64,000 bases of DNA from IMG/VR virus record IMGVR_UViG_3300025383_000009; one strand, given 5' to 3'. The position numbers were made by a program, and so were the translations under genes. This DNA is from a virus. Its lineage: Duplodnaviria; Caudoviricetes. The notes beneath the pieces are model-generated. The model was given only the letters and a program-made list of their open reading frames with translations, was not told where the DNA came from and did not search any database. Numbering within the stretch: the stretch's first letter is position 1; each line of letters begins with the position of its first letter. Positions 8,420 through 64,000 of this stretch are shown here, one piece after another.

Positions 8420-8425
8420 ATTGGC

Positions 8426-8454
8426 AGTATACCATAATTAATTATTAATGTACA
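8426..8454 (-). promoter_or_regulatory. Early promoter TGTACA-17-TATACT
   Basis: TGTACATTAATAATTAATTATGGTATACT, 6 nt before ATG at 8419. Confidence 0.75.
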
Positions 8455-8455
8455 A

Positions 8456-8713
8456 TTATTCAGCTTCTTGGTTTGTAACTGTTTGATAGATCGTCTCAAA
8501 CTCATCGTTCAAAGCTACCTCTTCATTAAAGTTTTGCTTATGATACGTATTAGCAAGCTTAGCAAGCGTTTTCTTAGGGATCTTAAATTCGTCATAAAGG
8601 TTCTTAAGTACTTCTTTTACAAAGTCCTTCTCAGCCTCAACGCGTGTCATAGAATCAGAGATCTCGTTAAGAGCACCTTTGATTTTCTTTTTGTCTTCGT
8701 CTAATAATTGCAT
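8456..8713 (-). CDS. DsbA-like dsDNA-binding protein
   Basis: 85 aa, LA..YHK.N..E....DEFE..Y.TV pattern like T4 DsbA; near rnh as in T4. Confidence 0.6.
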   Translation of the reverse strand: MQLLDEDKKKIKGALNEISDSMTRVEAEKDFVKEVLKNLYDEFKIPKKTLAKLANTYHKQNFNEEVALNDEFETIYQTVTNQEAE

Positions 8714-8735
8714 AATATACCTTTCAAGTTAAAAA

Positions 8736-8934
8736 TAAAAACACACTAGACGAGGCGACCTCGTGGCCACAAGTTCCTGCTTATCTCTAATGTGTTTTTA
8801 TATTTAGTAAGACTCTCGAAACTACGAAGTGCACTCGTAGCTGACCCATCGGAAGCAGTGGCCCGCTGAGCATGCATACCCATTAAAGCACAGCCAGTGT
8901 CCGCATATATTTTATTGATTGGCTGAGAGTCTTA
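8736..8934 (-). ncRNA. Candidate structured non-coding RNA (two closed domains)
   Basis: 10 bp closing stem TAAGACTCTC/GAGAGTCTTA (8808-8934) enclosing several hairpins; second 15 bp stem 8736-8800; G-U wobbles favour the minus strand; no known family recognised. Confidence 0.5.
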
Positions 8935-9066
8935 TTCGTCATAGCCAGGTCCCCAGAAGTGAGGGTCGATACCACCTAGATAGTTTAGGTCTTCGTTATC
9001 ATCCTCTTCAATAGGATCTGGCACTGGTGTAATGTAACCGTCTTTTTTGTCTTTGACATTTAACAT
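8932..9066 (-). CDS. Small acidic protein (44 aa) not in ORF track
   Basis: MLNVKDKKDGYITPVPDPIEEDDNEDLNYLGGIDPHFWGPGYDE; ATG 6 nt after a TATAAT. Confidence 0.6.
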   Translation of the reverse strand: MLNVKDKKDGYITPVPDPIEEDDNEDLNYLGGIDPHFWGPGYDE

Positions 9067-9072
9067 GATATC

Positions 9073-9101
9073 ATTATACCCTTTTTTTGGTTTATTGTAC
9101 A
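9073..9101 (-). promoter_or_regulatory. Early promoter TGTACA-17-TATAAT
   Basis: Hexamers at 9096-9101 and 9073-9078. Confidence 0.75.
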
Positions 9102-9108
9102 TATATTT

Positions 9109-9297
9109 TTAAGCCTTAACACTGTCAACTGTTGCAAAGCCAGTCACCGCTGCTTTACTGTAACCCTTAGACCAAATGCTGCCAGTCCTATTTACAGGTA
9201 CTTCACTGCCTCGTGGACCATGATATGGCAACTGTTGAACCTTACCACCATTATCTAAAAATTCTTGAACTGCTTGTTGAAATTCTTGTTCTGTCAT
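9109..9297 (-). CDS. Hypothetical protein
   Basis: MTEQEFQQAVQEFLDNGGKVQQLP, SD AAGGAG upstream. Confidence 0.6.
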   Translation of the reverse strand: MTEQEFQQAVQEFLDNGGKVQQLPYHGPRGSEVPVNRTGSIWSKGYSKAAVTGFATVDSVKA

Positions 9298-9307
9298 AGC
9301 TTTCTCC

Positions 9308-9718
9308 TTACCAACTTGAATTATAAAATACTTCTTCGCCTCTCGCAATTGCTTCGCGAGCTTTCTTGATGAACTCTAAGTCTGATGCTTTATCATCAGC
9401 ATCGAACCTTGAGTCATAACCAAAGAAGAAACCTTCGGTCATAGGTAACTGGTTAGTCTTAACGCGGGCCTCGATATAATCAAGGTCTGCCTCTGTAAGT
9501 TGAAGCTCAACTCCGTTGAAGTCGATCTTTGAGTCTTCGCTGTACTCGTCAGGATACTCGTCGATCAACCATTGTGGAACCTTAGCTCCCTTATCATGCC
9601 ATAACTCTTCCATAAGACCATGAAGAGCGTTGTGTTTTCTCCAGTATTGAAGCTCCGTTGATGGTGCTTCAGCTGCAGATTCTTTAGCGCGGCTATACGC
9701 ATACATATCTAAACCCAT
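9308..9718 (-). CDS. Conserved phage hypothetical (MGLDMY family)
   Basis: MGLDMYAY, YWRKHNALHG, GFFFG, FY.SSW. Confidence 0.75.
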   Translation of the reverse strand: MGLDMYAYSRAKESAAEAPSTELQYWRKHNALHGLMEELWHDKGAKVPQWLIDEYPDEYSEDSKIDFNGVELQLTEADLDYIEARVKTNQLPMTEGFFFGYDSRFDADDKASDLEFIKKAREAIARGEEVFYNSSW

Positions 9719-9879
9719 TATCTAATCTCCTTGATAAATTTTGCTTTGAGTAAACTTTCAACTATACCATTATCATTATCTTGAGCGGTTAACATCCAAC
9801 CTTCTAAAGTAGTACCTGAAAAGGCATATTGTGGGTTAACAAGGCATTTATAATAATGTCCATTGATTTTAAAAATCAT
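9718..9879 (-). CDS. Small hypothetical (53 aa) not in ORF track
   Basis: MIFKINGHYYKCLVNPQY...KEIR; TAATG-coupled on both ends. Confidence 0.6.
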   Translation of the reverse strand: MIFKINGHYYKCLVNPQYAFSGTTLEGWMLTAQDNDNGIVESLLKAKFIKEIR

Positions 9880-10166
9880 TATGCAGCCTCCCTTTCATCC
9901 TTCATTAAGCTAAACATGATGTGCTTAGCACGGTTGATGAATTGACGAGCTTCGTTAGCTTGTTGAGGTGATACCCAACCTTCGTTAGCACCGTTGAAGT
10001 CAGCACCGATAACTTCTTGTGCATCACTTAACATGCCTGCTGCGAACATCATTTCCTGACCTGGAAAAGCTTGCATTTTTACCATTTGGTCTAACTGAGC
10101 TTTAGTCATACCGTAAGCTTGTTTTTCCCATTCTAAATCTGATCCTATTGTCATTGCTGGTTTCAT
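9879..10166 (-). CDS. Hypothetical early protein, homolog of 62495..62764
   Basis: WE.QAYG..KA.L..MVK.QAFPG.E.MFAAG.LSDAQE shared. Confidence 0.7.
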   Translation of the reverse strand: MKPAMTIGSDLEWEKQAYGMTKAQLDQMVKMQAFPGQEMMFAAGMLSDAQEVIGADFNGANEGWVSPQQANEARQFINRAKHIMFSLMKDEREAA

Positions 10167-10197
10167 ATATCTCTCCGTTTGTTGATTTAATATAACC

Positions 10198-10226
10198 ATT
10201 ATACCGGAAAGTCTAATTAATGTACA
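10198..10226 (-). promoter_or_regulatory. Early promoter TGTACA-17-TATAAT
   Basis: TGTACATTAATTAGACTTTCCGGTATAAT. Confidence 0.75.
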
Positions 10227-10355
10227 TAGGCCCCCTTAAAATAAATAAGGTATACAGATCAATAACTTACGTATTATGCAAGTTATTGATTATATTGGAC
10301 TTTAGTTTGGGTGTGCCCTGGAGCGCCTGGGACAGCGCGGGCTGGAGGATATATG

Positions 10356-12365
10356 CTACTTAGATTGTGCCCTAAAAGTGCCATCCCATTCAGCCGGGAG
10401 GCCCTCTTCCATACGTTCAATCATGTTCATGTAGTACTGCTTGATGGTTACGCTGTCATCTTCGACCAAACCTTTGGCCCATTTGATAGCTTTATCCCAG
10501 TTTCCACGATAGTATTCTTTTATGTATTCATTATGCGCGTGTTTAACTGTCTCACCGATCGTGTAGATCTTAATGCCTTCAGTCTTACCTTTCACTGCGA
10601 TGTTATCTAGTTCAATAACGTTGTAATGGTCTTTAACTAGTTCTGCTGTGCGTGCACCTAAAACAAGCTTAACACCGTACGGCTTAGATTGTCCTTCAAG
10701 CCTTGACGCCAAATTGACTCCGTCACCGAGACAAGTATAGTCAAAACGCTGGCTAGAACCCATATTACCCACAACGACATCAGCAGTGTTAATACCAAGT
10801 CCCATCCCGAAAGCCGGTACGCCTTCTTTAGCAATCTCTTGATTGAACGCATCTAAGTCTCCTAACATTGATAGTGCAGTCTTAACTGCGTTGAGAGCAT
10901 GATCTTTATCATCAAGTGGAGCATTCCAAAAAGCCATCTGTGCATCACCAATATACTTATCAAGTGTTCCGTTGTTCTCTATGATCTTAGCAGTCATAGC
11001 TGTCATGTAACGATTCATGATCTTAGTTAAGCCTTGTACATCCTTACCATAGTGTTCTGATATGGTTGTGAAGCCTCTTACGTCTGTAAACATGATACTT
11101 AATTCTCTTGTTTCACCACCAAGCTTTAATAGTTCTGGGTTCTTTTGTAGTTTATCAACCATTGCTGGTGATAGGTATGTACCAAACTGTTTCTTGATCT
11201 GTAGTTTTTGGTTTAACTCGCTTACAAACTTAACAGTATATGTATGAGCATATACGATAGCCAAAGCAACGATAGGAAAAATCCCATCCAAAAGAACGCC
11301 GTAATGAGAGAAAACATAACTAGAAGCGTAATACAAAAAGCCAAGAAGAAGCAAAATAGGGATAATAGCATATTTCCACCTTGATAGGATAATGATAAAG
11401 ATTGATAATAATATGACTGCTAATACTTCAGCGCCATCTGCCCAGCCAGGTCGTGATATGCTAGTACCTGATGTGAGCGTGTCTAGAACTGACGCTTGAA
11501 GGTAATGAGGAAAGAGTCCACCTCGAGCTGTTGCAACTGGGTTGTTAAGTCCCTTTGCGGTAAGCCCAACAATGACGATACCTCCGTTAAATGATTCTGG
11601 GAGGTCCATAAGACTGTGTTCAATTGGAGTCGAGCTCCAGTCGACCCAGATACGACCGATTGGGTCGGTTGTAATTTTGGAGAAGCTTGGGATTCGAACA
11701 GCTTCGATTCCTGAAACGGAAGATTTGACTTGGAAACTTGGGTCTCCGACTGCGACACGCAAAGTTTCGAGAGTAATACTTGGGTAGAGCAAGCCTCCGC
11801 TTGATACGACCATAGGGATACGACGAACAACACCATCAATTTCAGGTAAGACATTTACAACTCCTATTCCAGCAGCTTTGTTATTAAATAGTTCAATGTT
11901 AGGTTGGATCCCAGGGTAATCAATAGTGAAGTCATGAGCTGGTGATCCAATCTCAGAGACTCCCGGTCTAAATGCTTGTCTAACTTGTTTATCTGTCGAT
12001 GCTACCTGAGGTAAGACGACAGGGTGTCCAGCAAGACTATCAACCAAGTTGGCATCGCGTCCAAAGCGATCAGAGTCAGGCATAAAGATATTAAAAACAA
12101 CAAGACCAGCATGACGGTGATAAAGATCCTCGATAATATTTGCATATTGACTCCTTGGAAATGGGAATTGACCAAGTCTTTCAATCGACTTATCATCGAT
12201 GTTAACCACGTGGACTTGCTTGGAAACGGTCTGTGGTTTACTAGTAATTAGTGTATCAAAGTACCTTAGTCGAACTGACTGCACAAAAGATGGGTCAGAT
12301 GCTCTAATACCTACTAGCAGAGCTAACGTTAACAGTGCAAACCAGGGTGATAATAATCTTTTCAT
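10356..12365 (-). CDS. CHASE2-domain class III adenylyl cyclase
   Basis: N-terminal TM, CHASE2 motifs (VVNIDDKSI..LGQFPFPR, DGVVRR.P), three TM helices, FTDVRGFT, DKYIGD, YTCLGDGVNLASRLE. Confidence 0.92.
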   Translation of the reverse strand: MKRLLSPWFALLTLALLVGIRASDPSFVQSVRLRYFDTLITSKPQTVSKQVHVVNIDDKSIERLGQFPFPRSQYANIIEDLYHRHAGLVVFNIFMPDSDRFGRDANLVDSLAGHPVVLPQVASTDKQVRQAFRPGVSEIGSPAHDFTIDYPGIQPNIELFNNKAAGIGVVNVLPEIDGVVRRIPMVVSSGGLLYPSITLETLRVAVGDPSFQVKSSVSGIEAVRIPSFSKITTDPIGRIWVDWSSTPIEHSLMDLPESFNGGIVIVGLTAKGLNNPVATARGGLFPHYLQASVLDTLTSGTSISRPGWADGAEVLAVILLSIFIIILSRWKYAIIPILLLLGFLYYASSYVFSHYGVLLDGIFPIVALAIVYAHTYTVKFVSELNQKLQIKKQFGTYLSPAMVDKLQKNPELLKLGGETRELSIMFTDVRGFTTISEHYGKDVQGLTKIMNRYMTAMTAKIIENNGTLDKYIGDAQMAFWNAPLDDKDHALNAVKTALSMLGDLDAFNQEIAKEGVPAFGMGLGINTADVVVGNMGSSQRFDYTCLGDGVNLASRLEGQSKPYGVKLVLGARTAELVKDHYNVIELDNIAVKGKTEGIKIYTIGETVKHAHNEYIKEYYRGNWDKAIKWAKGLVEDDSVTIKQYYMNMIERMEEGLPAEWDGTFRAQSK

Positions 12366-36347: not shown

Positions 36348-36355
36348 TATAAATA
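36348..36355 (+). promoter_or_regulatory. Late promoter TATAAATA
   Basis: Exact consensus 47 nt before ATG at 36403. Confidence 0.7.
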
Positions 36356-36402: not shown

Positions 36403-37584
36403 ATGATAACATTCAAGACGTTTTTAAAAGAAGAATACGAGCCATCACCAGAAGGCAAACTTAAGCACATTCATCATGCTGAAGACAGGCCTTTATTACA
36501 TGGTGGCAAAGGTTTTACTCACGCCTTCAATGCATTAAATCAAGCGCACGAACACATAAAATCTGGCGGTCACAGTTCAGCATTAACAATGAAATATGAT
36601 GGTTCGCCTGCTGTTGTTTTTGGTCATCATCCAGAAACAGGTAAATTCTTTGTAGCATCCAAATCAGCATTCAATAAAAATCCAAAGTTGAATTATACCC
36701 ATAAGGATATAGAAAAGAATCACGGCCATGCGCCTGGTCTTATGGACAAACTCCATGACGCTTTAAATCATCTCAAAAAAGTATCACCTAAAACAGGCGT
36801 TTATCAAGGTGATATGATGTTTGGTTCAACTGATAAAAAAGAAACTAAAAACGGTGTTTCTTTCACTCCTAATACCATTACATATACAGGAAAAGGTGAA
36901 GAAGCAAATAAGATTAGAAAATCTAAAATGGGTGTTATTGTTCACACACAATATCATGGTGACAATATTGCTTCAATGAAAGCAGACCCACATCCAGATT
37001 TACATAACTTCGCACAACATCCAGATGTATGGCACAAATCAGCCAATCACGATACTAAACAAGTCCATTATTCAGAAAATGACCAAAAAGAATTTAATTC
37101 TCATATGGCCGCAGCAAAAGCAATACATGATGAACATAAATCAACAATGTATAAAGCTACACAACCACATCAAGGAGATGCTGGGCATTTAGCAACATAT
37201 ATAAATCATACAGTCAGAACAGGTGAAACTCCATCTGCTGAAGGACTTAAAAAGCATATAGCTAGTAAGTATAAAAAAGAGATTGATAAGTTAAAAACAC
37301 CAGCAGCACAATCTCGTAAAGCAAGTGAAGCTAATAAGCATGCAGACCATATAGATAACAATAAAGAACACTATAATAATTTGTTGAAAATGCATCATCA
37401 TTTACAGCAAGCAAAAGATATATTAGTTAATAATTTAAACCAACATGAGGGCGGTTTAGAACACCATATTGGTAAAAAGAGAACAAATCCAGAAGGGTTT
37501 GTTATCAATCATGCTGGTGAACCAACAAAATTAGTTAATAGAGCAGAATTTAGTAAAGCCAACCTTTTAAAAGTGAGAAAATGA
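36403..37584 (+). CDS. His-rich ligase-superfamily-like protein (DUF6267-like)
   Basis: TMKYDGSPA (KxDG motif I), FFVASKS, YQGDMMF, EGFV; CTS-like N-terminus. Confidence 0.6.
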   Translation: MITFKTFLKEEYEPSPEGKLKHIHHAEDRPLLHGGKGFTHAFNALNQAHEHIKSGGHSSALTMKYDGSPAVVFGHHPETGKFFVASKSAFNKNPKLNYTHKDIEKNHGHAPGLMDKLHDALNHLKKVSPKTGVYQGDMMFGSTDKKETKNGVSFTPNTITYTGKGEEANKIRKSKMGVIVHTQYHGDNIASMKADPHPDLHNFAQHPDVWHKSANHDTKQVHYSENDQKEFNSHMAAAKAIHDEHKSTMYKATQPHQGDAGHLATYINHTVRTGETPSAEGLKKHIASKYKKEIDKLKTPAAQSRKASEANKHADHIDNNKEHYNNLLKMHHHLQQAKDILVNNLNQHEGGLEHHIGKKRTNPEGFVINHAGEPTKLVNRAEFSKANLLKVRK

Positions 37585-39497
37585 AGACCTTTTTAGAATT
37601 AGTAGAAGAAAAACAATCGACACATAAACCTGTGGTGGTAGGTTTTGGTCGTATGAATCCTCCTACATCAGGTCATCTAAAACTTATTGATAAGGTTAGA
37701 GAAATAGCAGATAAAAACAAAGCTAAACATAAAGTTATTGTTACTCATACACAAGATTCAAAAAGAAATCCATTATCAGGCCAACAAAAACTTAAACATT
37801 TAAAAAGATATTCACCTGGTACTAATTTTGAAACATCTTCAAAAGACCATCCAACTATATTACATCATGCTGCTAAATTGCATGCTCAAGGACACGACCA
37901 TTTGATTATGGTTGCTGGTTCTGATAGAGTTAAAGAATATCAGGACTTATTACACAAATACAATGGTAAAGAAGGACAACACGGTTACTTCAATTTCAAA
38001 AAGATAGAAGTTAAGTCAGCAGGCCATCGTGATCCAGATTCGGAAGGTGCAGAAGGTATGTCTGGTACAAAGATGAGAGAACACGCTAAGAACAATGATT
38101 TCTCATCATTTAGACAAGGTGTTCCATCTCATGTTCCTGACCATCACGCTAGAGAATTAATGAAAGATGTTCGTAGAGGCATGGGTCTTAATGAACAATT
38201 CGATAGAGGTATGTTTAAAGCAATATTTGTGACTGGTGGTCCAGGTTCAGGTAAAGATATTGTTATTCGTGAAGCTATTGCTGAATCAAAGATTACTGAA
38301 TTAAACTTTACACAAGTGGTAGATATTCTTAACGATAAACAAAAACTTGCTATGAAATCAATGAATCCTAGAAATGAAGCAGTCAGAACAAGAGGTCCAT
38401 TAATTATCAACGGTCCAGCTGATGATTTAGAAAAAATCAATCATATCAAAGAAGAATTAGAAGAACTTGGTTACGAAACCATGATGATTTTTGTCAATAC
38501 AACTAACGAAGTATCTAAAGAAAGAAATACTTTACTATCCAGAATGATGGTTGAATCTATTAGACAGGATAAGTGGAGTAAATCTCAAGAAAATACTAAA
38601 TATTTCATTGAGGCATTTAACAACTTTGTTGCCTTTGATAATACAGGTTATATTGATACAAAAGAAGAAGATATCAATGACATCTATCAATCAACAAAGA
38701 TATTTTTAGATGCTAAGGCGATAAACGAAACAGTTGATGATTGGTATTTGAGAAACATTAACTTGAATGAAAAAGTTAATGAATTATTCAATGAAAAAGA
38801 TGCCAAAGGTATTCAACTTAAAACTGTAGGTAAATATAATGCTTTCTATAAAGCAAAAGGTCCTGCAGATATTAAAAGAGATAATCGCACAAGTAGATTT
38901 AGTGTTACAAGTGACAATACACTAAAAGGTGACCAAATTAAAGGTAATGTATTACCTAGAAAAGACCCAAACGGTCAAGGTCATTCGGGTGGTTCTTGGT
39001 CTGGTGCTTATAATGAAGCAGCACCAACATTAACTTGGAATAAACCACCAAAAGAACCAAACTTTAATTATGACAATGATAAGAACAAGAAGTTAAAAAG
39101 AGGTAATAGTTCATTAAGTGCTGGTCGAGTGACTCAACCACCAGGCTTAGGAAGAACATACGATACAAGAGCAGGTGGTCAAGGTGCCGCAGCAGGTGCC
39201 GGACTTGGCGACCAAACATATAGCGAAGATAGAGAATATAGTAACGCAAGTCAGAACGGTACAGCAATGCTAGGTGCTAAATTAGAACCTAATCCATTAG
39301 CAGAAAAGAAACCGTTTAATAAATTTAGAAAAAGCATTAAAGAGTTTAATGGCTTTCAAAATGATGTAGAATCTGGTGTTGGTGGTGTCTTGGGCGGTTC
39401 AGACAATAAAGAACGTATGGACAGTTATAAAGACCCTATTAGACATATACAAAATGACTATTCATTAAAGAAGAAGAAGAAAAATGCTAAAATTTAA
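37581..39497 (+). CDS. HxGH nucleotidyltransferase fused to P-loop kinase-like domain
   Basis: GRMNPPTSGHLKL, VAGSDRV, SAG.RDPD, MSGTKMR; then FVTGGPGSGKD. Confidence 0.75.
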   Translation: MKTFLELVEEKQSTHKPVVVGFGRMNPPTSGHLKLIDKVREIADKNKAKHKVIVTHTQDSKRNPLSGQQKLKHLKRYSPGTNFETSSKDHPTILHHAAKLHAQGHDHLIMVAGSDRVKEYQDLLHKYNGKEGQHGYFNFKKIEVKSAGHRDPDSEGAEGMSGTKMREHAKNNDFSSFRQGVPSHVPDHHARELMKDVRRGMGLNEQFDRGMFKAIFVTGGPGSGKDIVIREAIAESKITELNFTQVVDILNDKQKLAMKSMNPRNEAVRTRGPLIINGPADDLEKINHIKEELEELGYETMMIFVNTTNEVSKERNTLLSRMMVESIRQDKWSKSQENTKYFIEAFNNFVAFDNTGYIDTKEEDINDIYQSTKIFLDAKAINETVDDWYLRNINLNEKVNELFNEKDAKGIQLKTVGKYNAFYKAKGPADIKRDNRTSRFSVTSDNTLKGDQIKGNVLPRKDPNGQGHSGGSWSGAYNEAAPTLTWNKPPKEPNFNYDNDKNKKLKRGNSSLSAGRVTQPPGLGRTYDTRAGGQGAAAGAGLGDQTYSEDREYSNASQNGTAMLGAKLEPNPLAEKKPFNKFRKSIKEFNGFQNDVESGVGGVLGGSDNKERMDSYKDPIRHIQNDYSLKKKKKNAKI

Positions 39498-40179
39498 ACA
39501 ATATCTTGACGAAGTTAAGAAACCTACAGGTGCCTTAAAAAAGGCTTGTTGGAAAGGTTATACAGCAATTGGTACTAAACAAAAGAATGGTAGAACAGTA
39601 CCAAACTGTGTACCTGAAGAAGTAGAACAAGTAAATGAAATAGACAAAGAAACAGTTAAGAGATATTTGGATAAAGTTACAACAGACCAATTAAAAAAGA
39701 CTGGCTATCAACCTGATATGTATGGTAAATTAGTACCAAAAAGACAAAAAGGTGTTGATAACGCATTTAAGAGATTACAAGTTAAGCCTACAACAGAAGA
39801 ACTTGAAGAATTGTTTGATATTTTAGAAGAAGTAGTTGATGGCATCGCAGAAGAAAGTAATATTGATCCAGATATTCTTTGGGAAAATCTTGAAGATGTT
39901 TCAGATGAAGAACTATACGAAACTGCCGCTTGGCGCAGAAAAGAAGGTAAAAGTCCTACAGGTGGTTTAAATGCAAAAGGAATTGCTTCTTATCGTAGAG
40001 AGAATCCAGGATCTAAATTAAAAAAGGCCGTTACAGGCAAAGTAAAACCAGGAAGTAAAGCCGCTAAACGCAGAAAATCATTCTGTGCTAGAATGGGTGG
40101 AATGCCTGGACCAATGAAAAAACCAGATGGTAAACCAACAAGAAAAGCACTCGCATTACGCAAGTGGAAATGCAGATAA
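39484..40179 (+). CDS. Putative internal head protein
   Basis: CTS-like MLKFKQYLDE, CWKGY..VPNCVP, EEVEQVNE, AAWRRKEGK..GGLNAKG, RRKSFCARM. Confidence 0.6.
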   Translation: MLKFKQYLDEVKKPTGALKKACWKGYTAIGTKQKNGRTVPNCVPEEVEQVNEIDKETVKRYLDKVTTDQLKKTGYQPDMYGKLVPKRQKGVDNAFKRLQVKPTTEELEELFDILEEVVDGIAEESNIDPDILWENLEDVSDEELYETAAWRRKEGKSPTGGLNAKGIASYRRENPGSKLKKAVTGKVKPGSKAAKRRKSFCARMGGMPGPMKKPDGKPTRKALALRKWKCR

Positions 40180-40192
40180 AGGAGAAATAAAA

Positions 40193-42214
40193 ATGTTTCA
40201 AAAAGATAAAGTAACCCAATCAATGATTGATGCCGTTAACCAAGTATTAGGAGAGGCTAAAGTTGAACCAGCTAAACCTGATCCAGAGGCTATTGCTCGT
40301 AAAAAGAAACTAGACGCATTACGAGATAAACAAGATGCTGAAAAGGCAGAAAAAGGACATTCTCCATCTGCTACCCGTAAGGTTGCTGGTCATGCTTACG
40401 GTGGTGCTAAACAAAAAGATGATGAAATGGATGAAGAAGTTAAATTAGATGAAGCTGAAATGGATGAATCTGGCTTACGCATGGCTGCACATGCTGCTCA
40501 CAAAGCAGGCCAATCACATTTTGAATTCAAAGGCAAAAAATATCCAGTTAAGGTTACAGAAGATGGTAAAGTTGATTGTGACTATGCTAAAGTTAAAGAT
40601 ATTGCTAGAAAAGAAGTTAAGGGTCATGAAAAATCAATGCATAAAGAAGAATTATCTTTTGCTAAGAAATTAAAATCAATGTTAGAAGCAAAAGGTCCTT
40701 TAGCAGGTGCTCCTGACGTATTCACCGATAACAATCTTGGTGAAGAAGAAATGTCTGATGCTCAAATGAAGAAAAGAGAAAAAATTGTAATGAGCATGAA
40801 AGATAAAACTGCTCAGTTTAAAGCAAAGTATGGTAAAAATTGGAAAAATGTAATGTATGCTACTGCTACTAAGCAAGCGATGAAAGAAGATGCAGACATT
40901 ACTAAACCTAATACAGAAAATAAAGGTGAAACAAAAGAAAGACAAAAGATTACTACTAATCCAGGTCCTGTAGATATCAAAACAGATGACAAATTAGGTA
41001 AACCTACTCCACAAGCTTATTTCACATCTAAAGAATTAGAGCAAGTAACACAAGAAGAAGTTATGGGTGAATTAAAACATTTACGCCATAAAGAAAAAGG
41101 AGAGCATAAAAAGAGAGTGTCTGATTTTAAAAAACATCACGACAAACATCAAGTAGATGATGGATGTGACCATTATCAAGAAGATATTGAATTTGATTTA
41201 ATCGATGAAGGTAAAGATGATGGTGATTATACTCATGTTGCTCACTACGAAGACAATGATGGTAACTGGATGGCTAAATTATTAATCGATGCTGAACATG
41301 ACGGTCATGCTATTGAAACAGCAAACAAAGCTATGGGTAAAGGTCCATTTGCTGGTTTAAGAGTTCGTAAGATTGAACGAGTAATGAAAGTTCATGACGG
41401 TAGAATGCAAGAAGAAGTAGAACAACTTGATGAGTTGGATCCAAAAACTTTAGCATCATATGCTAAGAAAGCCTCTCATGATGCTCGTATTAAACAAACA
41501 GTAGCTAGAGATTTTCTTGCTAAATCTAATACAGCTAGAAGTCCAAGAAAAAAAGAAACATGGTCTAGTCTTTCTAAAAAGTACCAAAGTGGTGCATGGA
41601 AAAGAGAAAAAGGCCATGATTTAGCTATTGATAAGTTAGCTAAAGAAGATGTAGAATATATTGATGAAGGCAAGATGAAAGATATCTACACTTCAATGAT
41701 GATGCATGCTGATAAAAAAGGTTATAAGAGCCATAAAGAATTTACACCAGCTGATTATACTGCTGTAGGTAAAGAACATGGTATTTCAGGTAAAGATTTA
41801 GCAGTAATTGCTGGTCATAAAACAGCATCACAAGTTGCTAAAGAAGAAACTGAAGTTGAAATCAATGAAGGCAAAATGAAAGATATCTACACTTCAATGA
41901 TGAACCATGCTGATAAAAAAGGATACAAAAGTCATAAAGAATTTACTTCAGCAGACTACAATGCAGTAGGCAAAGAACATGGCATTTCAGGTAAAGATTT
42001 AGCAGTTATTGCTGGTCATAAAACAGCATCACAAGTTGCTAAAGAAGAAGCAGAAGGTTCATGGCAAAAAGAATCACCATGGAAAAAATCACCTGGTACT
42101 GTAACAGATAAGTCTGGTGCTAAACATACACCAATGTCTAGAGTTAAAGATATTGCTAAACAAGCACTAAAAAAAGTAAAACAAGAAACAATGATGGGTA
42201 AAATTTCTAACTAA
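40193..42214 (+). CDS. Modular putative internal head polyprotein
   Basis: Modules separated by EEVKLDE, EDIEFDLIDE, EEVEQLDE, EDVEYIDE, EETEVEINE. Confidence 0.6.
   Translation: MFQKDKVTQSMIDAVNQVLGEAKVEPAKPDPEAIARKKKLDALRDKQDAEKAEKGHSPSATRKVAGHAYGGAKQKDDEMDEEVKLDEAEMDESGLRMAAHAAHKAGQSHFEFKGKKYPVKVTEDGKVDCDYAKVKDIARKEVKGHEKSMHKEELSFAKKLKSMLEAKGPLAGAPDVFTDNNLGEEEMSDAQMKKREKIVMSMKDKTAQFKAKYGKNWKNVMYATATKQAMKEDADITKPNTENKGETKERQKITTNPGPVDIKTDDKLGKPTPQAYFTSKELEQVTQEEVMGELKHLRHKEKGEHKKRVSDFKKHHDKHQVDDGCDHYQEDIEFDLIDEGKDDGDYTHVAHYEDNDGNWMAKLLIDAEHDGHAIETANKAMGKGPFAGLRVRKIERVMKVHDGRMQEEVEQLDELDPKTLASYAKKASHDARIKQTVARDFLAKSNTARSPRKKETWSSLSKKYQSGAWKREKGHDLAIDKLAKEDVEYIDEGKMKDIYTSMMMHADKKGYKSHKEFTPADYTAVGKEHGISGKDLAVIAGHKTASQVAKEETEVEINEGKMKDIYTSMMNHADKKGYKSHKEFTSADYNAVGKEHGISGKDLAVIAGHKTASQVAKEEAEGSWQKESPWKKSPGTVTDKSGAKHTPMSRVKDIAKQALKKVKQETMMGKISN
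41666..42049 (+). repeat. In-frame tandem duplication of a 61 aa module (period 201 nt)
   Basis: EGKMKDIYTSMM.HADKKGYKSHKEFT.ADY.AVGKEHGISGKDLAVIAGHKTASQVAKEE twice, with synonymous differences. Confidence 0.95.
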
Positions 42215-42224
42215 AGAGAACAAC

Positions 42225-43424
42225 ATGGCTAAAACACTAAAAGATGTAATTAAAAAGAATATTGCACCAGCAAGCAGATTTGGAAAAAATCCATCTGATC
42301 CTTGGTCAGTAAAATCTAATATCAATGAAACAGCTATGCTAGATAAATTCTTATCATCTAGAGGAATTAATCCTAAATTTGCTGCCGTTGATACAAAAGA
42401 TGCTTATGCTAAATCTAATGAATTTAAGAAATGGTTAAGAGACCATCAATCAGGCACTCAAATGGAAGATATGACAACTAGCCGATATGCTGGTGATGCT
42501 CGTTCTAAAGATGTTCATTCACCTACAGCACAAAGAGAAAAAGATTTAGAAAAGGTTAGTAAACATCACGAAATTAAACCTGTTCATACAAATTCATCAA
42601 AGGTTGTTACTATGAAAAAACCAACAAGTGAAGCAGCTCATCCTGATGAAAAGACCACAGATATGCTTCGTGGTCGTGTCAAAGGTGGTAAACCAAACGA
42701 GTTTAAGAGTTATAAGATTAGAATTTCTAAAGAAGAAGTTGAATACACTACAGAAATAGCAGCTTCAGTAATGGCTTCAAAATTAAATAAAGACGCAGAT
42801 GAAAATCGCACTAGCATTGATGCTGAAGAATTGACTACAGACACTTTAGCTGGTAGAGTTAAAGGCGGTAAAGCTAATGCTGTATTATCATATAAAATTA
42901 GATTATCTCATGCTAAAGGTGAAGATGCTGATACTTTAGATGTAACAAAAGAACCAGAAGATTCTAGTTTTCCACACAGAGAACAGTTTGAAATACAAGA
43001 AGACTTAATAGGTGATACAAAATCAGCAACAATTTCACCAGCAGATGGAGCAAACGGTGGCGCAGAATCTGTTACAAAAAAATTATCTAGAAAAGCTCAA
43101 TTAATTTTAGGTGTAGTTAAAAAAAGAGCTATGAAAGAAGATATGCATGATTGGGAAAAAGAAGATAAATCTGTAGCATCTTATGGTAAAAAACCTAAAT
43201 TTGAAAAGCAAGAAGATAAGAATGCAGAAAATAATAATGGTGAAAAGAAATCTGAAGCTGCAGGCACATTATCTGGCGGTACTACACTAACAGGTGAGAA
43301 AAGAGATACAGTAGAACTTGATCCATTGATGAGAAGTCGTCCTAATCAACCAGATCCAACAAAGAAGAAAGACGACAAAAAAGATGACAAGAAAGACAAG
43401 CCTAAAGAAGCACCAAGAGGCTAG
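42225..43424 (+). CDS. Putative internal/virion protein with internal repeat
   Basis: TTDMLRGRVKGGK..FKSYKI and TTDTLAGRVKGGK..VLSYKI; NINE and EEVEYTTE motifs. Confidence 0.6.
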   Translation: MAKTLKDVIKKNIAPASRFGKNPSDPWSVKSNINETAMLDKFLSSRGINPKFAAVDTKDAYAKSNEFKKWLRDHQSGTQMEDMTTSRYAGDARSKDVHSPTAQREKDLEKVSKHHEIKPVHTNSSKVVTMKKPTSEAAHPDEKTTDMLRGRVKGGKPNEFKSYKIRISKEEVEYTTEIAASVMASKLNKDADENRTSIDAEELTTDTLAGRVKGGKANAVLSYKIRLSHAKGEDADTLDVTKEPEDSSFPHREQFEIQEDLIGDTKSATISPADGANGGAESVTKKLSRKAQLILGVVKKRAMKEDMHDWEKEDKSVASYGKKPKFEKQEDKNAENNNGEKKSEAAGTLSGGTTLTGEKRDTVELDPLMRSRPNQPDPTKKKDDKKDDKKDKPKEAPRG

Positions 43425-43428
43425 ATTA

Positions 43429-43436
43429 GATAAATA
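43429..43436 (+). promoter_or_regulatory. Late promoter variant GATAAATA
   Basis: 38 nt before ATG at 43475. Confidence 0.5.
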
Positions 43437-43474
43437 CTTAACATAACTAACCCGAGGTTAAAAGGAGAAAAGAA

Positions 43475-44098
43475 ATGCCAACATGGGGAAATACCGATAC
43501 TGGTAATCAAAAACCAAAGTTTGACTATTTACGTCAAACAAGAGAAGTTTTACAATTTATAGTTTCATCTGGTAATACAGCAGGAAATAACGTAATTAGA
43601 GTTAGTTACAACGATGGCGCACAAAACAATGTAGCCAATGCTGGTGTAACTTCAGGTCAATATGTTTATTTCATGGCAAACGGATTTGCACTACCTGGCG
43701 GCACAGCAGGTAATGGTTATCCAGGTTTCTTTGCATCAAATACAACAGTAGCATCAGTTAGTGGTAACACAATTACATTAACACAAAACTTATTCAATAC
43801 AGTAAACGTAGGTTTTGGTGTTGAATTTGACAATGCTATCAATTATGGAACAACAGCAGGTGCAAATACTTATTTCCTAGATACTATTTTAGTTACAGCA
43901 TCTCGCACAGCAAATGGTAATAACGCAATTGCAAACGTAGGTAATATGACTGCTGGTTGGGTTCATATTCAAAAGAAAGTGAACAGCGACGGTACAGTTC
44001 GTTACTTAAAAGAAACATTAGTTGCTTTAGCGAATGCTACTGCTTCAAATACAAGTTCAGGTAACACAAGCTTTGGTTCTATTGTAACTGGTTTATAA
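43475..44098 (+). CDS. Putative virion structural protein
   Basis: MPTWGNTD start, rich in G/N/T/A, AGWVH ... ETLVAL C-terminus typical of T4-like head appendage proteins. Confidence 0.55.
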   Translation: MPTWGNTDTGNQKPKFDYLRQTREVLQFIVSSGNTAGNNVIRVSYNDGAQNNVANAGVTSGQYVYFMANGFALPGGTAGNGYPGFFASNTTVASVSGNTITLTQNLFNTVNVGFGVEFDNAINYGTTAGANTYFLDTILVTASRTANGNNAIANVGNMTAGWVHIQKKVNSDGTVRYLKETLVALANATASNTSSGNTSFGSIVTGL

Positions 44099-44580
44099 TG
44101 ATTAAGTTTCATGATTTCGTTGTTGAGGAATTAAATTTTCCTGTAATAACTCTTGATAAAGAGAAAGTAGACCTTGATAAGGAATCTACTCGCAACGAAA
44201 TCAATAGAAACCTATCATCTGAATTAGTTACTAATTTTATTAATCCTTATGCTGGCTGGTTAAAAGTTGGAAAAGTATTAACACTCTATAACATTACATT
44301 ACCTAAGGTAATATTTAAAAATGATATAGAAGGCGAAGAAGTTGTTGCTATAACACAATTTGGTGCAGACCTTTCGGGTAAGGAATCTGCACCACAATTG
44401 CCTTATGAAGAAGAATATTATTTGTATTATAGTTATGAAGTTGTTGAATCTGGTTTATATGAAGCTTATGCTGTTATTGTAAACGGTGATGAATTAGAAA
44501 ATATGCTTGAAGCTGATGACGAAGATGATGATGACATTGACGTTTTAGGACCTAAAAGCGAATTAGATTATAGAAAATAG
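44098..44580 (+). CDS. Acidic protein with CTS-like N-terminus
   Basis: MIKFHDFVVEE. Confidence 0.6.
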   Translation: MIKFHDFVVEELNFPVITLDKEKVDLDKESTRNEINRNLSSELVTNFINPYAGWLKVGKVLTLYNITLPKVIFKNDIEGEEVVAITQFGADLSGKESAPQLPYEEEYYLYYSYEVVESGLYEAYAVIVNGDELENMLEADDEDDDDIDVLGPKSELDYRK

Positions 44581-44592
44581 TTAAATTATATT

Positions 44593-44979
44593 ATGATTGA
44601 TAATTTGACAGAAGAAAACTTTTTGATATATGCTATGAAGTGCTATAATGCACCTAATTACATTATGTCAGAATTTGAAGGAGATATTAAGAGAACAAAA
44701 TATCTTAAACGATTATTTCGTAGATATAAAACCAATAAATCTCTTAAAGAACGATTAATTCTAAATCATATTATTTTGTTGAATAATGTTTTTGGTCCAA
44801 AAGTGACCGCAAGAATATTATTCTACAAGATAGATGAACGAGATTATGATATATTGAAAACATTTTTATTGTATGTAAATATATTACCAGACTTAATAGA
44901 AGGTATTAATGGCAAATCAATTAATACATCTGAAATACCTGTAGACATGACTGTTGCTGAAAAATTAAGGAATCTATGA
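44593..44979 (+). CDS. Conserved T4-like hypothetical
   Basis: LTEENF..YAMK.Y, EF..D.KR.KY.KRLF.RY, ERLILNHII.L.NVFG. Confidence 0.75.
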   Translation: MIDNLTEENFLIYAMKCYNAPNYIMSEFEGDIKRTKYLKRLFRRYKTNKSLKERLILNHIILLNNVFGPKVTARILFYKIDERDYDILKTFLLYVNILPDLIEGINGKSINTSEIPVDMTVAEKLRNL

Positions 44980-45167
44980 AATCATTTAAAGAATATATCA
45001 AAGAAATGGGTGCAGGTGCTGTAGGTAGTGCTGGTCCAACTAATGTAGTTGGCGGTGGTGCAATTGCAGGTACAGGCGGTAAAGGCGGAGAACCTGGCGT
45101 TGATTTAAGAAAAAGGAAAAGAAATACACATAATCCAGTTATGATGGGTATTGGTAGAAGGAAATAA
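44976..45167 (+). CDS. Small Gly-rich protein with CTS-like N-terminus
   Basis: MKSFKEYIKE then PTNVVGGGAIAG. Confidence 0.65.
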   Translation: MKSFKEYIKEMGAGAVGSAGPTNVVGGGAIAGTGGKGGEPGVDLRKRKRNTHNPVMMGIGRRK

Positions 45168-45169
45168 TT

Positions 45170-45751
45170 ATGTTCTTTCCTGAGTTTCTATCATATAATT
45201 GGATATTAGGTTACATACCTACTTGGGTTCCTATAGCAATTATTTGTTTTGGTGTCTTTCTAGCTATTCTAGAAATGACTTTTGAAATGTTGCAACTTAT
45301 TCCTTACGGTTATAGGTTGCCTTTAAGAATAATCACTATTGTGATTCTTGCTCACGGTATCTATATAAAAGGACGCCAAGATGCAATTGTTCATGCTGAA
45401 GAAGAATTGAAGAAAACTGTAGCTGAACAAAAAGATGTAACTAATAAGGTACAACAAGATTTTACTAGACAACTTAATGATGTGAGAGCTAAAAATGAAG
45501 CACTTAAAAAAACTATTAATACCAAAGACGATACTATGTGTGATTTGCCTAAGTCTTTTGTCGAGTTGCACGACAGCGCTGCTAAAGGCACCGTTCCCGA
45601 CACCTCCAAAAGAATTGATGGTACCTCCTCCGGAGTTGCACTCTCTACAGCAGAACAAACAGTAGTAGAAAATTATAGTTTATATAATCAAATAGCAGAA
45701 CAATTAAAAGCTTTACAATATTGGGTAGATGAACAAAGGAAATTACACTAA
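45170..45751 (+). CDS. Rz-like spanin
   Basis: N-terminal TMs, coiled coil, C.LP.SFV.LHD.AA and QL.ALQ.W; upstream of endolysin. Confidence 0.6.
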   Translation: MFFPEFLSYNWILGYIPTWVPIAIICFGVFLAILEMTFEMLQLIPYGYRLPLRIITIVILAHGIYIKGRQDAIVHAEEELKKTVAEQKDVTNKVQQDFTRQLNDVRAKNEALKKTINTKDDTMCDLPKSFVELHDSAAKGTVPDTSKRIDGTSSGVALSTAEQTVVENYSLYNQIAEQLKALQYWVDEQRKLH

Positions 45752-61983: not shown

Positions 61984-62015
61984 ATAGGACACATAGCGAT
62001 TCTTAAGCCGCCTCC

Positions 62016-62045
62016 AAAAAAAAGAGGTGCCCCAATGGACACCTC
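62016..62045 (-). terminator. Intrinsic terminator for minus-strand early genes
   Basis: GAGGTGTCC-ATTG-GGGCACCTC followed by T8 on minus strand. Confidence 0.8.
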
Positions 62046-62077
62046 CGGAGAGTGGCGCTGACTAGACGCCGATAAAA

Positions 62078-62209
62078 CTATTTGAACTGCTCGAATGAGC
62101 TCGTTGATTTGAACTCAGCGAATTCATCATGCTGAAACCACCTAGAGTCCGATACAGCATATTTTATTACCAATCCTAATACAATACCAATTAATAGTCC
62201 TTTAAGCAT
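62078..62209 (-). CDS. Small membrane protein (43 aa) not in ORF track
   Basis: MLKGLLIGIVLGLVIKYAV..., SD GGAGG. Confidence 0.6.
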   Translation of the reverse strand: MLKGLLIGIVLGLVIKYAVSDSRWFQHDEFAEFKSTSSFEQFK

Positions 62210-62498
62210 TTTCTACCTCCCTAATTATTGATTCAACCTTGTCCACTGCTCTTCTATCATACCCGCCAATGTGCCAGTCATAATAGTGCCTAGGGGTATC
62301 ACCGTATTCCTTCCAGTCGTATATGGTCACCACCGTGCCATCGATTTCTAGCACCCATTCACAGGTCACCTTATCGGATGGGTCCTCATCTGGACCGTAG
62401 GATGGTTCACCGAAGGCTGCCACCAGTGTATCATAGTCCGTATAGACTTCGCCTTGGAGGGAAGTGCCTCCTGCTGAAGATAGCTTTTCGATTCTCAT
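62202..62498 (-). CDS. Conserved phage hypothetical
   Basis: L...FGEP, K...EW.L, TIYDWK, WHIGG. Confidence 0.7.
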   Translation of the reverse strand: MRIEKLSSAGGTSLQGEVYTDYDTLVAAFGEPSYGPDEDPSDKVTCEWVLEIDGTVVTIYDWKEYGDTPRHYYDWHIGGYDRRAVDKVESIIREVENA

Positions 62499-62764
62499 AC
62501 AGGCTCCTTTCTGGATTCCATCAAGTTGAACATGATGCATTTAGCACGATTGAGGAACTGTCTAGCTTGATTCGCTTGGTCTGGAGATACCCAGCCGTCC
62601 TCGTTGAATTCAGCGCTGATGATTTCCTGTGCATCTGATAGGATACCAGCTGCGAACATGAGCTCTGTGCCTGGGAAGGCTTGCTCTTTTACCATTCTCA
62701 TAAGGGACGCTTTAGAGCATCCGTAAGCTTGTAATTCCCAATCTAATTTTTCTTTTTCAGTCAT
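62495..62764 (-). CDS. Hypothetical early protein, homolog of 9879..10166
   Basis: QAFPG.E.MFAAG.LSDAQE ... GWVSP.QAN.ARQF.NRAK. Confidence 0.7.
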   Translation of the reverse strand: MTEKEKLDWELQAYGCSKASLMRMVKEQAFPGTELMFAAGILSDAQEIISAEFNEDGWVSPDQANQARQFLNRAKCIMFNLMESRKEPV

Positions 62765-62791
62765 ATTTTTCTCCTTTTTAATTGTATGGCT

Positions 62792-62819
62792 AGGATAACA
62801 CATCCATGCCAAAAGTCAA
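62792..62819 (-). promoter_or_regulatory. Promoter TTGACT-16-TATCCT
   Basis: Near-identical to promoter at 63971-63998. Confidence 0.6.
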
Positions 62820-62825
62820 GCATTA

Positions 62826-63155
62826 TTAAGCGATTTCTGCTAAATAATCTCGATAATCAATGGTGGGTTCGGCATAGCGGATCTCGCCTTCGTATTCGAG
62901 CTGGCTCTTTTCAAATGGAGACATCCAGTCATCCGCTTGGAGGGAGTATCCGATAATGTCTGAGCGGAAGAAATTGTTATTCTCCTCGATGTCCAAGCGA
63001 ACCATCTCCACAACCTCAGCTGGGTCCACGCCTTGTGGAATGTTAGTGATTTTGTAGGATTGACCACCCTTCATTTTCCAGCGGTAGTCACCAGTGAAAC
63101 CTTGGTGGGCGGCATAATTTTCTTGGTCTTGCGTATCGATTACTAACATACTCAT
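62826..63155 (-). CDS. Conserved phage hypothetical
   Basis: TQ..ENY.AH, WK.KGG. Confidence 0.7.
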   Translation of the reverse strand: MSMLVIDTQDQENYAAHQGFTGDYRWKMKGGQSYKITNIPQGVDPAEVVEMVRLDIEENNNFFRSDIIGYSLQADDWMSPFEKSQLEYEGEIRYAEPTIDYRDYLAEIA

Positions 63156-63183
63156 TTTTTTATCTCCTTATCAATTATGTTCC

Positions 63184-63211
63184 ATTATACAGAAAATGGA
63201 TGGAATGTCAA
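63184..63211 (-). promoter_or_regulatory. Promoter TTGACA-16-TATAAT
   Basis: CTTGACATTCCATCCATTTTCTGTATAAT. Confidence 0.7.
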
Positions 63212-63291
63212 GCAGAATTTTAGCCCCCTATGGAAGACGACCAGGGGTGGATTAGAAGACCAGATTAATTGCTGCCTTACCAATGGTGTCC

Positions 63292-63319
63292 ATTATACAG
63301 AAACCAATGAAAAAGTCAA
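63292..63319 (-). promoter_or_regulatory. Tandem promoter TTGACT-16-TATAAT
   Basis: Shares TTCTGTATAATGGAC/A with the promoter at 63184. Confidence 0.7.
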
Positions 63320-63344
63320 GCGAAATCTAGGGGGCCTAGGGGGC

Positions 63345-63372
63345 TTGACTTTATTGCCAGATGTGATATAAT
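63345..63372 (+). promoter_or_regulatory. Rightward promoter TTGACT-16-TATAAT, antisense to 63380..63673
   Basis: Consensus-like hexamers facing the 3' end of a minus-strand gene. Confidence 0.55.
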
Positions 63373-63379
63373 AGGGGGC

Positions 63380-63673
63380 TTAATTACAGCCCAAATACTG
63401 CTGAAACGGAACCACTCCACCGAATCCGTTTGGAGCCCATACGGTCTGATAGATGGGGCGGCAACCTCGACCGAACTGGCCAACGTAGGGATTAGCATTG
63501 TATCCATAAGAGCGATTAAGCTCATATCCTACGATGCCCCCTATAATAGCTGGAGCGATCCAATTGTTACCACCGCCATGATGGTACCCACCGCCATATC
63601 CGCCTCTGAACCCATCGTGAGCCTGAGCCCCGATGGAGACTGATAATAATAGAACTGCTAATAATTTGCTCAT
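63380..63673 (-). CDS. Secreted Gly/Tyr/His-rich small protein (homolog of 22446..22778)
   Basis: Signal peptide, HDGFRGGYGGGYHHGGG, PAIIGGIVGYEL, Q..GC end. Confidence 0.7.
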   Translation of the reverse strand: MSKLLAVLLLSVSIGAQAHDGFRGGYGGGYHHGGGNNWIAPAIIGGIVGYELNRSYGYNANPYVGQFGRGCRPIYQTVWAPNGFGGVVPFQQYLGCN

Positions 63674-63873
63674 GCTTTAATCTCCTCTGCTTCCATATCA
63701 TGATACCACACTTCCCTAGTTTCCCATCCGTCTTCCTCATAGAGGACATTTGGATCTCCACTAGAATTCATTACTATTTCCATTGCCTCTTCAGCAGAGT
63801 CAGCCTCGATTGTATGAACCTCGGTCTCGATAAACTCTACCAATTTTGGTAGCCTTACTGTAAACTTAGCCAT
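63670..63873 (-). CDS. Small acidic hypothetical
   Basis: IEADSAEEAME pattern, SD GGAG. Confidence 0.65.
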   Translation of the reverse strand: MAKFTVRLPKLVEFIETEVHTIEADSAEEAMEIVMNSSGDPNVLYEEDGWETREVWYHDMEAEEIKA

Positions 63874-63970
63874 TTTATTTTCTCTCCAAAATATAGAGCC
63901 CGATGGTTATTATTACTAGTCCGATCCAGAGCCCTATTAAAAGTGTTATTAAATTATTCATAGTGTAGCC

Positions 63971-63998
63971 ATCCTAACATATCCATACCAAAAGTCAA
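63971..63998 (-). promoter_or_regulatory. Promoter TTGACT-16-TAGGAT
   Basis: CTTGACTTTTGGTATGGATATGTTAGGAT. Confidence 0.55.
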
Positions 63999-64000
63999 GC

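Follow-up and report, generated by a model that had tools for sequence, protein, structure and literature searches.

The window analysed here, a 64-kb stretch of viral DNA (IMG/VR record IMGVR_UViG_3300025383_000009), comes from a T4-like myophage and carries genes for the gp43 polymerase (18930), the gp41 helicase (24157), the gp61 primase (47098) and nrdA (48551). The sequencing runs listed as holding it are freshwater and lake metagenomes, none of them recorded as RNA, and no DNA nearly identical to it was found in the phage collection searched. Between the gp41 and gp61 genes lies a block of nine open reading frames (ORFs), p1 to p9, arranged head to tail on the plus strand (Table 1), and a homologous cluster occupies the same position in Syn9 (gp182-gp191), S-SZBM1, the Methylophilales phage Melnitz and the Pelagibacter phage HTVC008M, all members of the Kyanoviridae. 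Five of the nine products begin with versions of a common decapeptide, termed the tag below, and these first ten residues of five late-operon proteins probably represent a capsid targeting sequence of the type described in phage T4.

Table 1. Genes and late promoter boxes of the block between the gp41 and gp61 genes (aa, amino acids; pI, isoelectric point)
Feature	Position	Strand	Tag	Description
Late promoter box TATAAATA	36348..36355	+		T4-type; lies 47 nt before the start of p1
p1, 393 aa	36403..37584	+	MITFKTFLKE	DUF6267; putative KxDG RNA-ligase-like nucleotidyltransferase
p2, 638 aa	37581..39497	+	MKTFLELVEE	Putative HxGH nucleotidyltransferase, P-loop kinase and disordered Gly-rich/basic tail (NadR-like build)
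p3, 231 aa	39484..40179	+	MLKFKQYLDE	Basic; Cys-containing CWxGY mini-module and C-terminal DUF6321
p4, 673 aa	40193..42214	+	untagged	Lys/Glu-rich; start set by conserved MF.K.KVTQSMIDA
p5, 399 aa	42225..43424	+	untagged	Lys/Glu-rich; no family match
GATAAATA	43429..43436	+		Late promoter box match (7/8) in the gap before 43475
p6, 207 aa	43475..44098	+	untagged	Positional counterpart of Syn9 gp188 and S-SZBM1_136
p7, 160 aa	44098..44580	+	MIKFHDFVVE	Acidic (pI 4.1)
p8, 128 aa	44593..44979	+	untagged	DUF7207 (Pfam E 2e-33)
p9, 63 aa	44976..45167	+	MKSFKEYIKE	Gly-rich stretch and basic tail

The five N-termini quoted in the initial annotation are all present at the starts reported there (36403, 37581, 39484, 44098 and 44976); each tag begins at the initiator Met, and most close homologues are called from that same Met. 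Common to all five is the pattern M-x-x-F-x-x-[FYL]-[LIV]-x-E, a regular expression composed after the data had been inspected. Required at a Met start (M..F..[FYL][LIV].E), it has exactly 5 matches among the 653 Met-start ORFs of at least 40 aa on both strands of the window, and freed of the Met anchor it occurs at 1.8e-4 per position of the six-frame translation, which amounts to about 0.014 expected occurrences over roughly 80 gene starts as against the 5 seen. The excess of tagged starts is far too large to stem from the post-hoc choice of the expression. The tags are not the near-identical 10-mers that they had been taken for: they have four fixed positions in common, and at the DNA level any two of them agree in 14-21 of 30 nt (47-70%), with different synonymous codons. 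Such low DNA identity, combined with the differing codons, points to selection acting on the peptide. It also speaks against the tag likeness being a functionless leftover of recent duplication or of cassette recombination at gene 5' ends. Gene shuffling at conserved junctions is indeed possible in hypervariable loci, and relatives do have additional tagged genes at the same positions; yet the pattern persists in proteins of the p1 family, DUF6267, at 33-72% identity, in cyanophages, in Melnitz and in T4, and this origin of the likeness appears extremely improbable.

The geometry of the tag corresponds to that of the T4 IPII/IPIII tag, MKTYQEFIAE. The first 10 residues of the T4 internal protein IPIII suffice for head incorporation, with positions 4 and 7 serving in targeting and 8 and 10 in processing (PMC9026906), and the prohead protease gp21 cleaves after the Glu of I/L-x-E motifs (PMC9026906, PMC12991175). 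All five window tags keep this register: position 4 is aromatic, position 7 aromatic or Leu, position 8 aliphatic and position 10 Glu. A scan of the T4 record NC_000866 with a degenerate form of the pattern recovered three sites and zero control matches: ipII and ipIII both begin with MKTYQEFIAE, and gp61.1 begins with MKTFKEFIKE. The attribution of both peptides to T4 internal proteins is thus correct for the former, but the latter heads a protein whose annotation in NC_000866 is 'hypothetical' rather than internal protein. T4 gp61.1 is a 54-aa product encoded just upstream of gene 61 (NC_000866 18966-19130; L009:267-431, minus strand), and its tag is followed by a Gly-rich stretch and then a basic tail. 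In a single comparison p9 aligned to it with 45% identity over 40 aa (E 1e-5), much of the match falling within the tag, and p9 is possibly, on these sequence grounds, the counterpart of gp61.1. The upstream neighbour of gp61.1 in T4, gp61.2, matches the Pfam family AdfA (anti-DarT factor A; E 1e-135), and T4 itself may therefore encode an unrecognised packaged peptide, gp61.1, beside a counter-defence gene.

The specificity of the tag was followed across 80 related IMG/VR loci with a DUF6267 identity of 70-85%. It is present in 79 of 79 DUF6267 orthologs, in most orthologs of p2 (the misses being start-calling artefacts or cases with Tyr at position 8), in all four orthologs of p7 and, by the strict expression, in 10 of 13 orthologs of p9, with near-misses among the remainder. 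In the same loci it is found in none of the orthologs of p4 (0/14), p5 (0/19) and p8 (0/29), and on no ortholog of p6, the lysis genes or the primase. When the DUF6267 N-termini were aligned through downstream homology, with no use of the motif in their selection, M1, F4 and E10 proved invariant and F7 and L8 nearly invariant, while positions 2, 5, 6 and 9 vary freely (entropy 1.7-2.4 bits). The 80 loci contain 180 tagged ORF starts, all on the strand of the cluster, of which 178 belong to the five ortholog groups or to genes inserted in the cluster and the other 2 look like spurious ORFs. Similarly, in a 111-kb contig of a relative (G001) the five tagged ORFs all fall inside 9 kb. At the position corresponding to p7, the Melnitz gene starts with MKNFKNHIAE and that of HTVC008M with MKSFKDF.

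Nineteen of the tagged starts lack a homologue in the window; apart from 2 that look spurious, they represent additional genes, 17 in number, inserted in the cluster. The extra genes (323-325, 430, 465, 137, 166 and 115 aa among others) make up at least five unrelated families beyond the five unrelated families tagged in the window and have no informative match in Pfam, PHROGs or NCBIfam, at most weak matches to PHROGs of unassigned function. Examples are L013:11176-12144 (323 aa), L041:11179-12468 (430 aa), L035:3864-5258 (465 aa), L016:14056-14466 (137 aa) and L043:15909-16253 (115 aa). Their sequences suggest that these inserted genes may encode further cargo, and the occurrence of the tag at the head of at least five other unrelated ORF families in related loci points to a variable cargo locus. 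Among 150 more divergent DUF6267 representatives (33-72% identity) about half are tagged, and many of the untagged ones begin right at the domain start KLxHLEHxED, one untagged example being found in another T4-like phage; this distribution marks the tag as a detachable module.

The above patterns bear on the possibility that the shared N-terminus is unrelated to the capsid and is instead a feature of expression or translation start in a coupled operon, an oligomerisation or localisation helix, or a signal for some other factor, such as the ClpP-like protease (PHROG 'ATP-dependent protease') encoded on the minus strand of the window at 1188-1865. The presence of this protease gene, the overlap of four of the five tagged genes with the stop codon of the preceding gene, which suggests translational coupling, the frequency of Lys-rich, A-rich second codons in AT-rich genomes and the tag on T4 gp61.1, a protein with no known virion role, could all be accommodated by such an explanation. 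However, a start feature would not fix F4, F/Y7, L/I8 and E10 and yet leave the codons and the four intervening positions free, the untagged p4, p5 and p8 of the same coupled operon are never tagged, the match to the experimentally mapped positions of T4 is exact (PMC9026906), and tagged homologues have been found in virions, as described next. We hence consider a non-capsid role distinctly unlikely.

The virion evidence concerns relatives of p2. A cytidylyltransferase/NMNAT-like homologue of this protein has been detected in the virions of S-SM1 (PMC3037559) and S-CREM2 (PMC10665884) and found by mass spectrometry in those of S-SZBM1 (PMC9146016) and S-SCSM1 (PMC9602691), the authors of the last study remarking that NMNAT-like proteins recur often in cyanophage virions (PMC9602691). 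The cyanophage protein (T4-GC190) is 38-40% identical to the N-terminal domain of p2, adjoins DUF6267 at the same genomic position and bears the same tag, which reads MKSFLQFLKE in S-SCSM1 ORF91, MKKFSAFLSE in Syn9 gp184, MKNFNSFLTE in the protein of S-B68 (same cluster as S-CREM2) and, with the register shifted by one, MRFRQFIIE in S-SZBM1_140. Among closer homologues of p2, 120 of 120 start with MK[ST]F. Unlike p2, the cyanophage proteins (Syn9, S-SZBM1, S-SCSM1, S-B68) align to the nucleotidyltransferase domain only, and thus appear to lack the fused P-loop kinase. A further difference is that in cyanophages the NMNAT-like protein alone is tagged and DUF6267 is untagged; the untagged DUF6267 neighbour in S-SZBM1 is missing from the proteins quoted as detected in PMC9146016, a single anecdotal contrast. 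The cyanophage papers found mention no targeting sequence or mechanism for the virion NMNAT-like protein, and our literature searches on capsid targeting sequences in cyanophages, DUF6267 and gp61.1 found no prior description.

The expression signals of the cluster are compatible with late synthesis. The initial annotation had placed late promoters at 36348 and 43429; the box at the former, TATAAATA, is exact and is the only plus-strand copy in the window, but the latter site, GATAAATA, is a 7/8 match. In G001 the box TATAAATA occurs seven times in 111 kb, including once 36 nt upstream of the gene for the gp22 scaffold and once 50 nt upstream of the tagged DUF6267 gene. A prohead protease of the gp21 type (Peptidase_S77) scores above the Pfam cut-off in three relatives (DUF6267 identity 75-79%), and in G001 its gene sits in a portal-protease-scaffold-capsid module. 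A complex prediction for the G001 gp22 homologue with the first 45 residues of the G001 DUF6267 protein returned no verdict and counts neither way. Within the cluster sigma-70-type promoters and terminators are no more frequent than expected by chance. With regard to promoters elsewhere, the window holds five exact copies of TATAAATA, all co-oriented with the local genes, and the heptamer ATAAATA is much rarer in it than in shuffled sequences (15 copies versus 40.6 +/- 6.9), a combination compatible with stray late promoters being selected against. Directly upstream of the primase gene, at 47060-47088, lies a sigma-70-type promoter close to the consensus (TTGACA, 17-nt spacer, TATTAT; 11/12), which would mark the point where late-cluster and lysis genes give way again to a gene of the early or middle class.

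Two of the tagged proteins have the signatures of enzymes. p1 belongs to the Pfam family DUF6267 (E 9e-101), which comprises more than 2,000 clusters at 50% identity. In its AF2 model (pLDDT 94.5, pTM 0.91) residues 1-20 are of low confidence and include a short helix at 4-12, and in the models of both p1 and p2 residues 4-12 form a separate low-confidence helix. All of ranks 1-16 in an exhaustive structural search with p1 (VIA) are ATP-dependent RNA or DNA ligases (Z 8.9-6.0; root-mean-square deviation 3.8-5.8 A over 166-203 aligned residues), with NgrRnl of Naegleria (Z 8.9), REL1 of T. brucei (8.0), Trl1 (7.9), T4 Rnl1 (7.6) and Rnl2 (7.5) among them, and the weak matches returned by Foldseek are likewise ligases. 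As the Z values are moderate, these matches support the fold and not the function. In a comparison of 79 sequences (32-72% identity), K64, D66 and G67, the motif I KxDG with its catalytic Lys, are kept in 90% or more; E364, G365, V367 and K376 are also conserved, and by our own reading the first three may constitute motif IV (EGxV) and the last the Lys of motif V. PDB sequence searches with p1 alone, a p1 profile and p2 alone yielded nothing meaningful. We regard p1 as a putative, divergent member of the RNA-ligase-like adenylyltransferases. It has motif I and the adenylyltransferase fold in common with the ATP-dependent RNA ligases, but its identity to them is 9-13%, about 120 aa (225-345) form an inserted helical bundle and the OB domain is absent. 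The DUF6267 sequence of the window (protein cluster P0001; 36403-37584) occurs on 18 contigs of up to 280 kb, as compared with the 140-230 kb seen in relatives; the genome may be unusually large or the longest contig a concatemer.

The second of these proteins, p2, matches the Pfam family CTP_transf_like and, weakly, Zeta_toxin, and p2-type proteins are named in the sources 'cytidyltransferase-like', 'predicted kinase' or 'NMNAT'. Across 31 homologues there is little or no variation in its motifs PPTSGH (H32), SGTKMR (S161-R166) and GGPGSGK (G219-K225). The model of p2 (pLDDT 75) has a disordered tail of about 230 aa, and its best Foldseek match is NadR (1lw7; E 2e-7), covering both domains, with 6gye at 7e-7 and alignments of about 410 columns; the bifunctional ATP sulfurylase/APS kinase scores almost equal to NadR. 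As in NadR, which combines an NMN adenylyltransferase with a ribosylnicotinamide kinase, an HxGH nucleotidyltransferase is followed in p2 by a P-loop kinase, the differences being an identity of about 15% and the addition of the disordered tail and the tag. By its predicted fold p2 is a NadR-like two-domain nucleotidyltransferase-kinase, which does not imply a substrate.

These catalytic features are relevant to a further alternative, in which the tag does target the prohead core but the proteins act in assembly only, as core or scaffold accessories or DNA condensers, and are then degraded, expelled or kept without a role, there being no injected effector. Such a fate would have parallels in the T4 core proteins gp22, gp67 and gp68, which gp21 cleaves and of which little remains in the mature head, and in the head-assembly defects of T4 IPIII mutants; p3 and p9, moreover, resemble in their small size and basic character the T4 internal proteins of uncertain role (PMC9026906 for all three). 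It is hard to reconcile with the full catalytic signatures that p1 and p2 keep under strong conservation, which would not be expected of scaffold filler, and with the persistence of tagged p2 homologues in mature virions. There is also a precedent for a large packaged enzyme in T4 Alt, an ADP-ribosyltransferase present at about 40 copies per head, cleaved by gp21 and injected (PMC9026906). An assembly-only role therefore seems unlikely to us.

Several observations weigh against a capsid targeting role of the tag. The residue at position 7 of the p2 tag is Leu and not aromatic, and the interior of p2 contains 15 [LIV]xE motifs where 6.9 are expected, an excess that shows no avoidance of protease sites; in general, avoidance of internal [LIV]xE gives no consistent signal, with p1 below expectation (the motif at the tag only, against 3.3 expected) and p2 and p3 in excess. 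Neither the gp21 nor the gp22 gene lies in the 64-kb window. The authors of the S-SCSM1 study cautioned that detection in CsCl-purified virions could represent carry-over of abundant proteins (PMC9602691), the virion detections all come from relatives, and for the phage of the window itself the support consists of sequence and structural models. Finally, packaging of T4 gp61.1 is not stated in the literature searched, and because this protein has a perfect tag with no documented virion role, such a tag is no proof of packaging. Even so, a capsid targeting function is well supported by the motif geometry, its ortholog-specific conservation and restriction to the cluster, the gp21-type protease of relatives and the tagged p2 homologues in published virions. 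Of the capsid-targeted late block containing two enzymes that was originally proposed, the T4-type tags on late genes, those for the two enzymes included, find good support, but the block is not uniformly tagged cargo, as the four genes at 40193, 42225, 43475 and 44593 inside it are untagged.

p3 contains DUF6321 (Pfam E 1e-22) and has a pI of 9.6; its CWxGY mini-module is found again in S-SZBM1_139, a protein detected in virions, and in the p2 homologue of Melnitz. This module of about 35 aa (CWxGY...G...VPNC) spans residues 19-54 of p3 (39538-39645) and is seen in L091 (S-SZBM1_139) and L001 (the Melnitz 10634 protein), the proteins that contain it being otherwise different; in relatives it also follows the tag immediately, in ORFs of 141-166 aa (L016:18284, L090:14862, L036:5934). 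p4 carries a 201-bp tandem duplication at 41664-42056 (2.0 copies, 90% identity), which doubles a 67-aa module. The idea that p4 and p5 are polyproteins with protease-site linkers was rejected, as their [LIV]xE counts are 8 versus 8.3 expected and 2 versus 4.4 expected. p5, p6 and p7 have no informative match in Pfam, PHROGs or NCBIfam, and p7 matches viral clusters of unassigned function only. p6 shares its position and N-terminus with Syn9 gp188, a 'head protein', and S-SZBM1_136, a 'virion structural protein', and the N-terminal signature M.(L/T)WG.TD...KPK is also present in the positionally equivalent genes of Melnitz and HTVC008M; BLASTP with p6 gave no match at 1e-3, so the likeness to head proteins is positional. 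Elsewhere in the window, two paralogous GH19-type endolysin-like genes lie on opposite strands (3370-4002, minus; 45751-46359, plus), and the GC content is 0.44 in 62001-64000 and 0.39-0.42 around 8001-12000 as compared with about 0.32-0.35 in the rest.

Taken as a capsid targeting sequence, the tag would operate as follows. The late promoter TATAAATA would express the five tagged proteins together with the head scaffold, and the short N-terminal helix, with its aromatic residues at 4 and 7, would dock the cargo on the prohead scaffolding core during assembly. Cleavage after Glu10 of [LIV]-x-E by the gp21-type prohead protease would then remove the tag, and the mature proteins would remain in the head with the DNA. 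The proposed cargo would consist of p1, p2, the basic DUF6321 protein p3, the acidic p7 and the Gly-rich basic p9. We infer the docking, the cleavage at Glu10, the retention in this phage, the ejection and any early or counter-defence role from the parallels with T4 and the relatives. That the cargo forms an injected counter-defence payload, as first suggested, is plausible. A more specific version would have p1 and p2 ejected with the DNA as a repair kit acting before phage expression, by resealing RNA after the action of abortive-infection nucleases and/or rebuilding NAD+ after NADase defence, with the tagged genes of relatives forming a swappable arsenal of injected counter-defence proteins comparable to the T-even internal-protein locus but made of enzymes; in this detailed form the proposal is quite unlikely.

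Four cyanophage studies saw a cytidylyltransferase/NMNAT-like enzyme in virions, leaving undecided whether it is true cargo and by which route it enters, and the T4-type tag on the NMNAT-like protein, together with four more tagged proteins here, provides a specific mechanism that is open to experimental test. With it, the T4 targeting code would extend from the T-even coliphages to a very abundant group of T4-like phages of aquatic environments, and the tag would provide a simple sequence rule for predicting head cargo in metagenomic phage genomes, one that points to enzyme cargo. Should the cargo indeed be injected, environmental phages would possess ready-made effectors of a new class. By means of the tag, foreign proteins could also be loaded into the heads of T4-like phages other than coliphages.

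The closest known system is the capsid targeting sequence of IPII and IPIII (Mullaney and Black 1996, reviewed in PMC9026906). The two have in common a decapeptide starting at Met1 with the same functional positions (4, 7, 8 and 10), the placement of the tag on unrelated mature proteins and a gene set that varies between related phages. Late expression beside gp21/gp22-type head assembly may be a further common trait, as judged for the phage of the window from its promoter box and from the genes of relatives. The two systems differ in that this phage is a freshwater relative of Kyanoviridae-type T4-like phages and thus of a separate lineage, in that the predicted cargo includes two large enzymes and not small basic proteins only, and in that the five tagged genes, known here from sequence, are collected in a single operon between the gp41 and gp61 genes. 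T4 Alt resembles the enzymes proposed here as a large protein of a T4-type head that is protease-processed and delivered with the DNA, but it is of an enzyme class other than that of p1 or p2. What is new relative to the known T4 mechanism is therefore the different phage lineage, the predicted enzyme cargo and the variable tagged locus.

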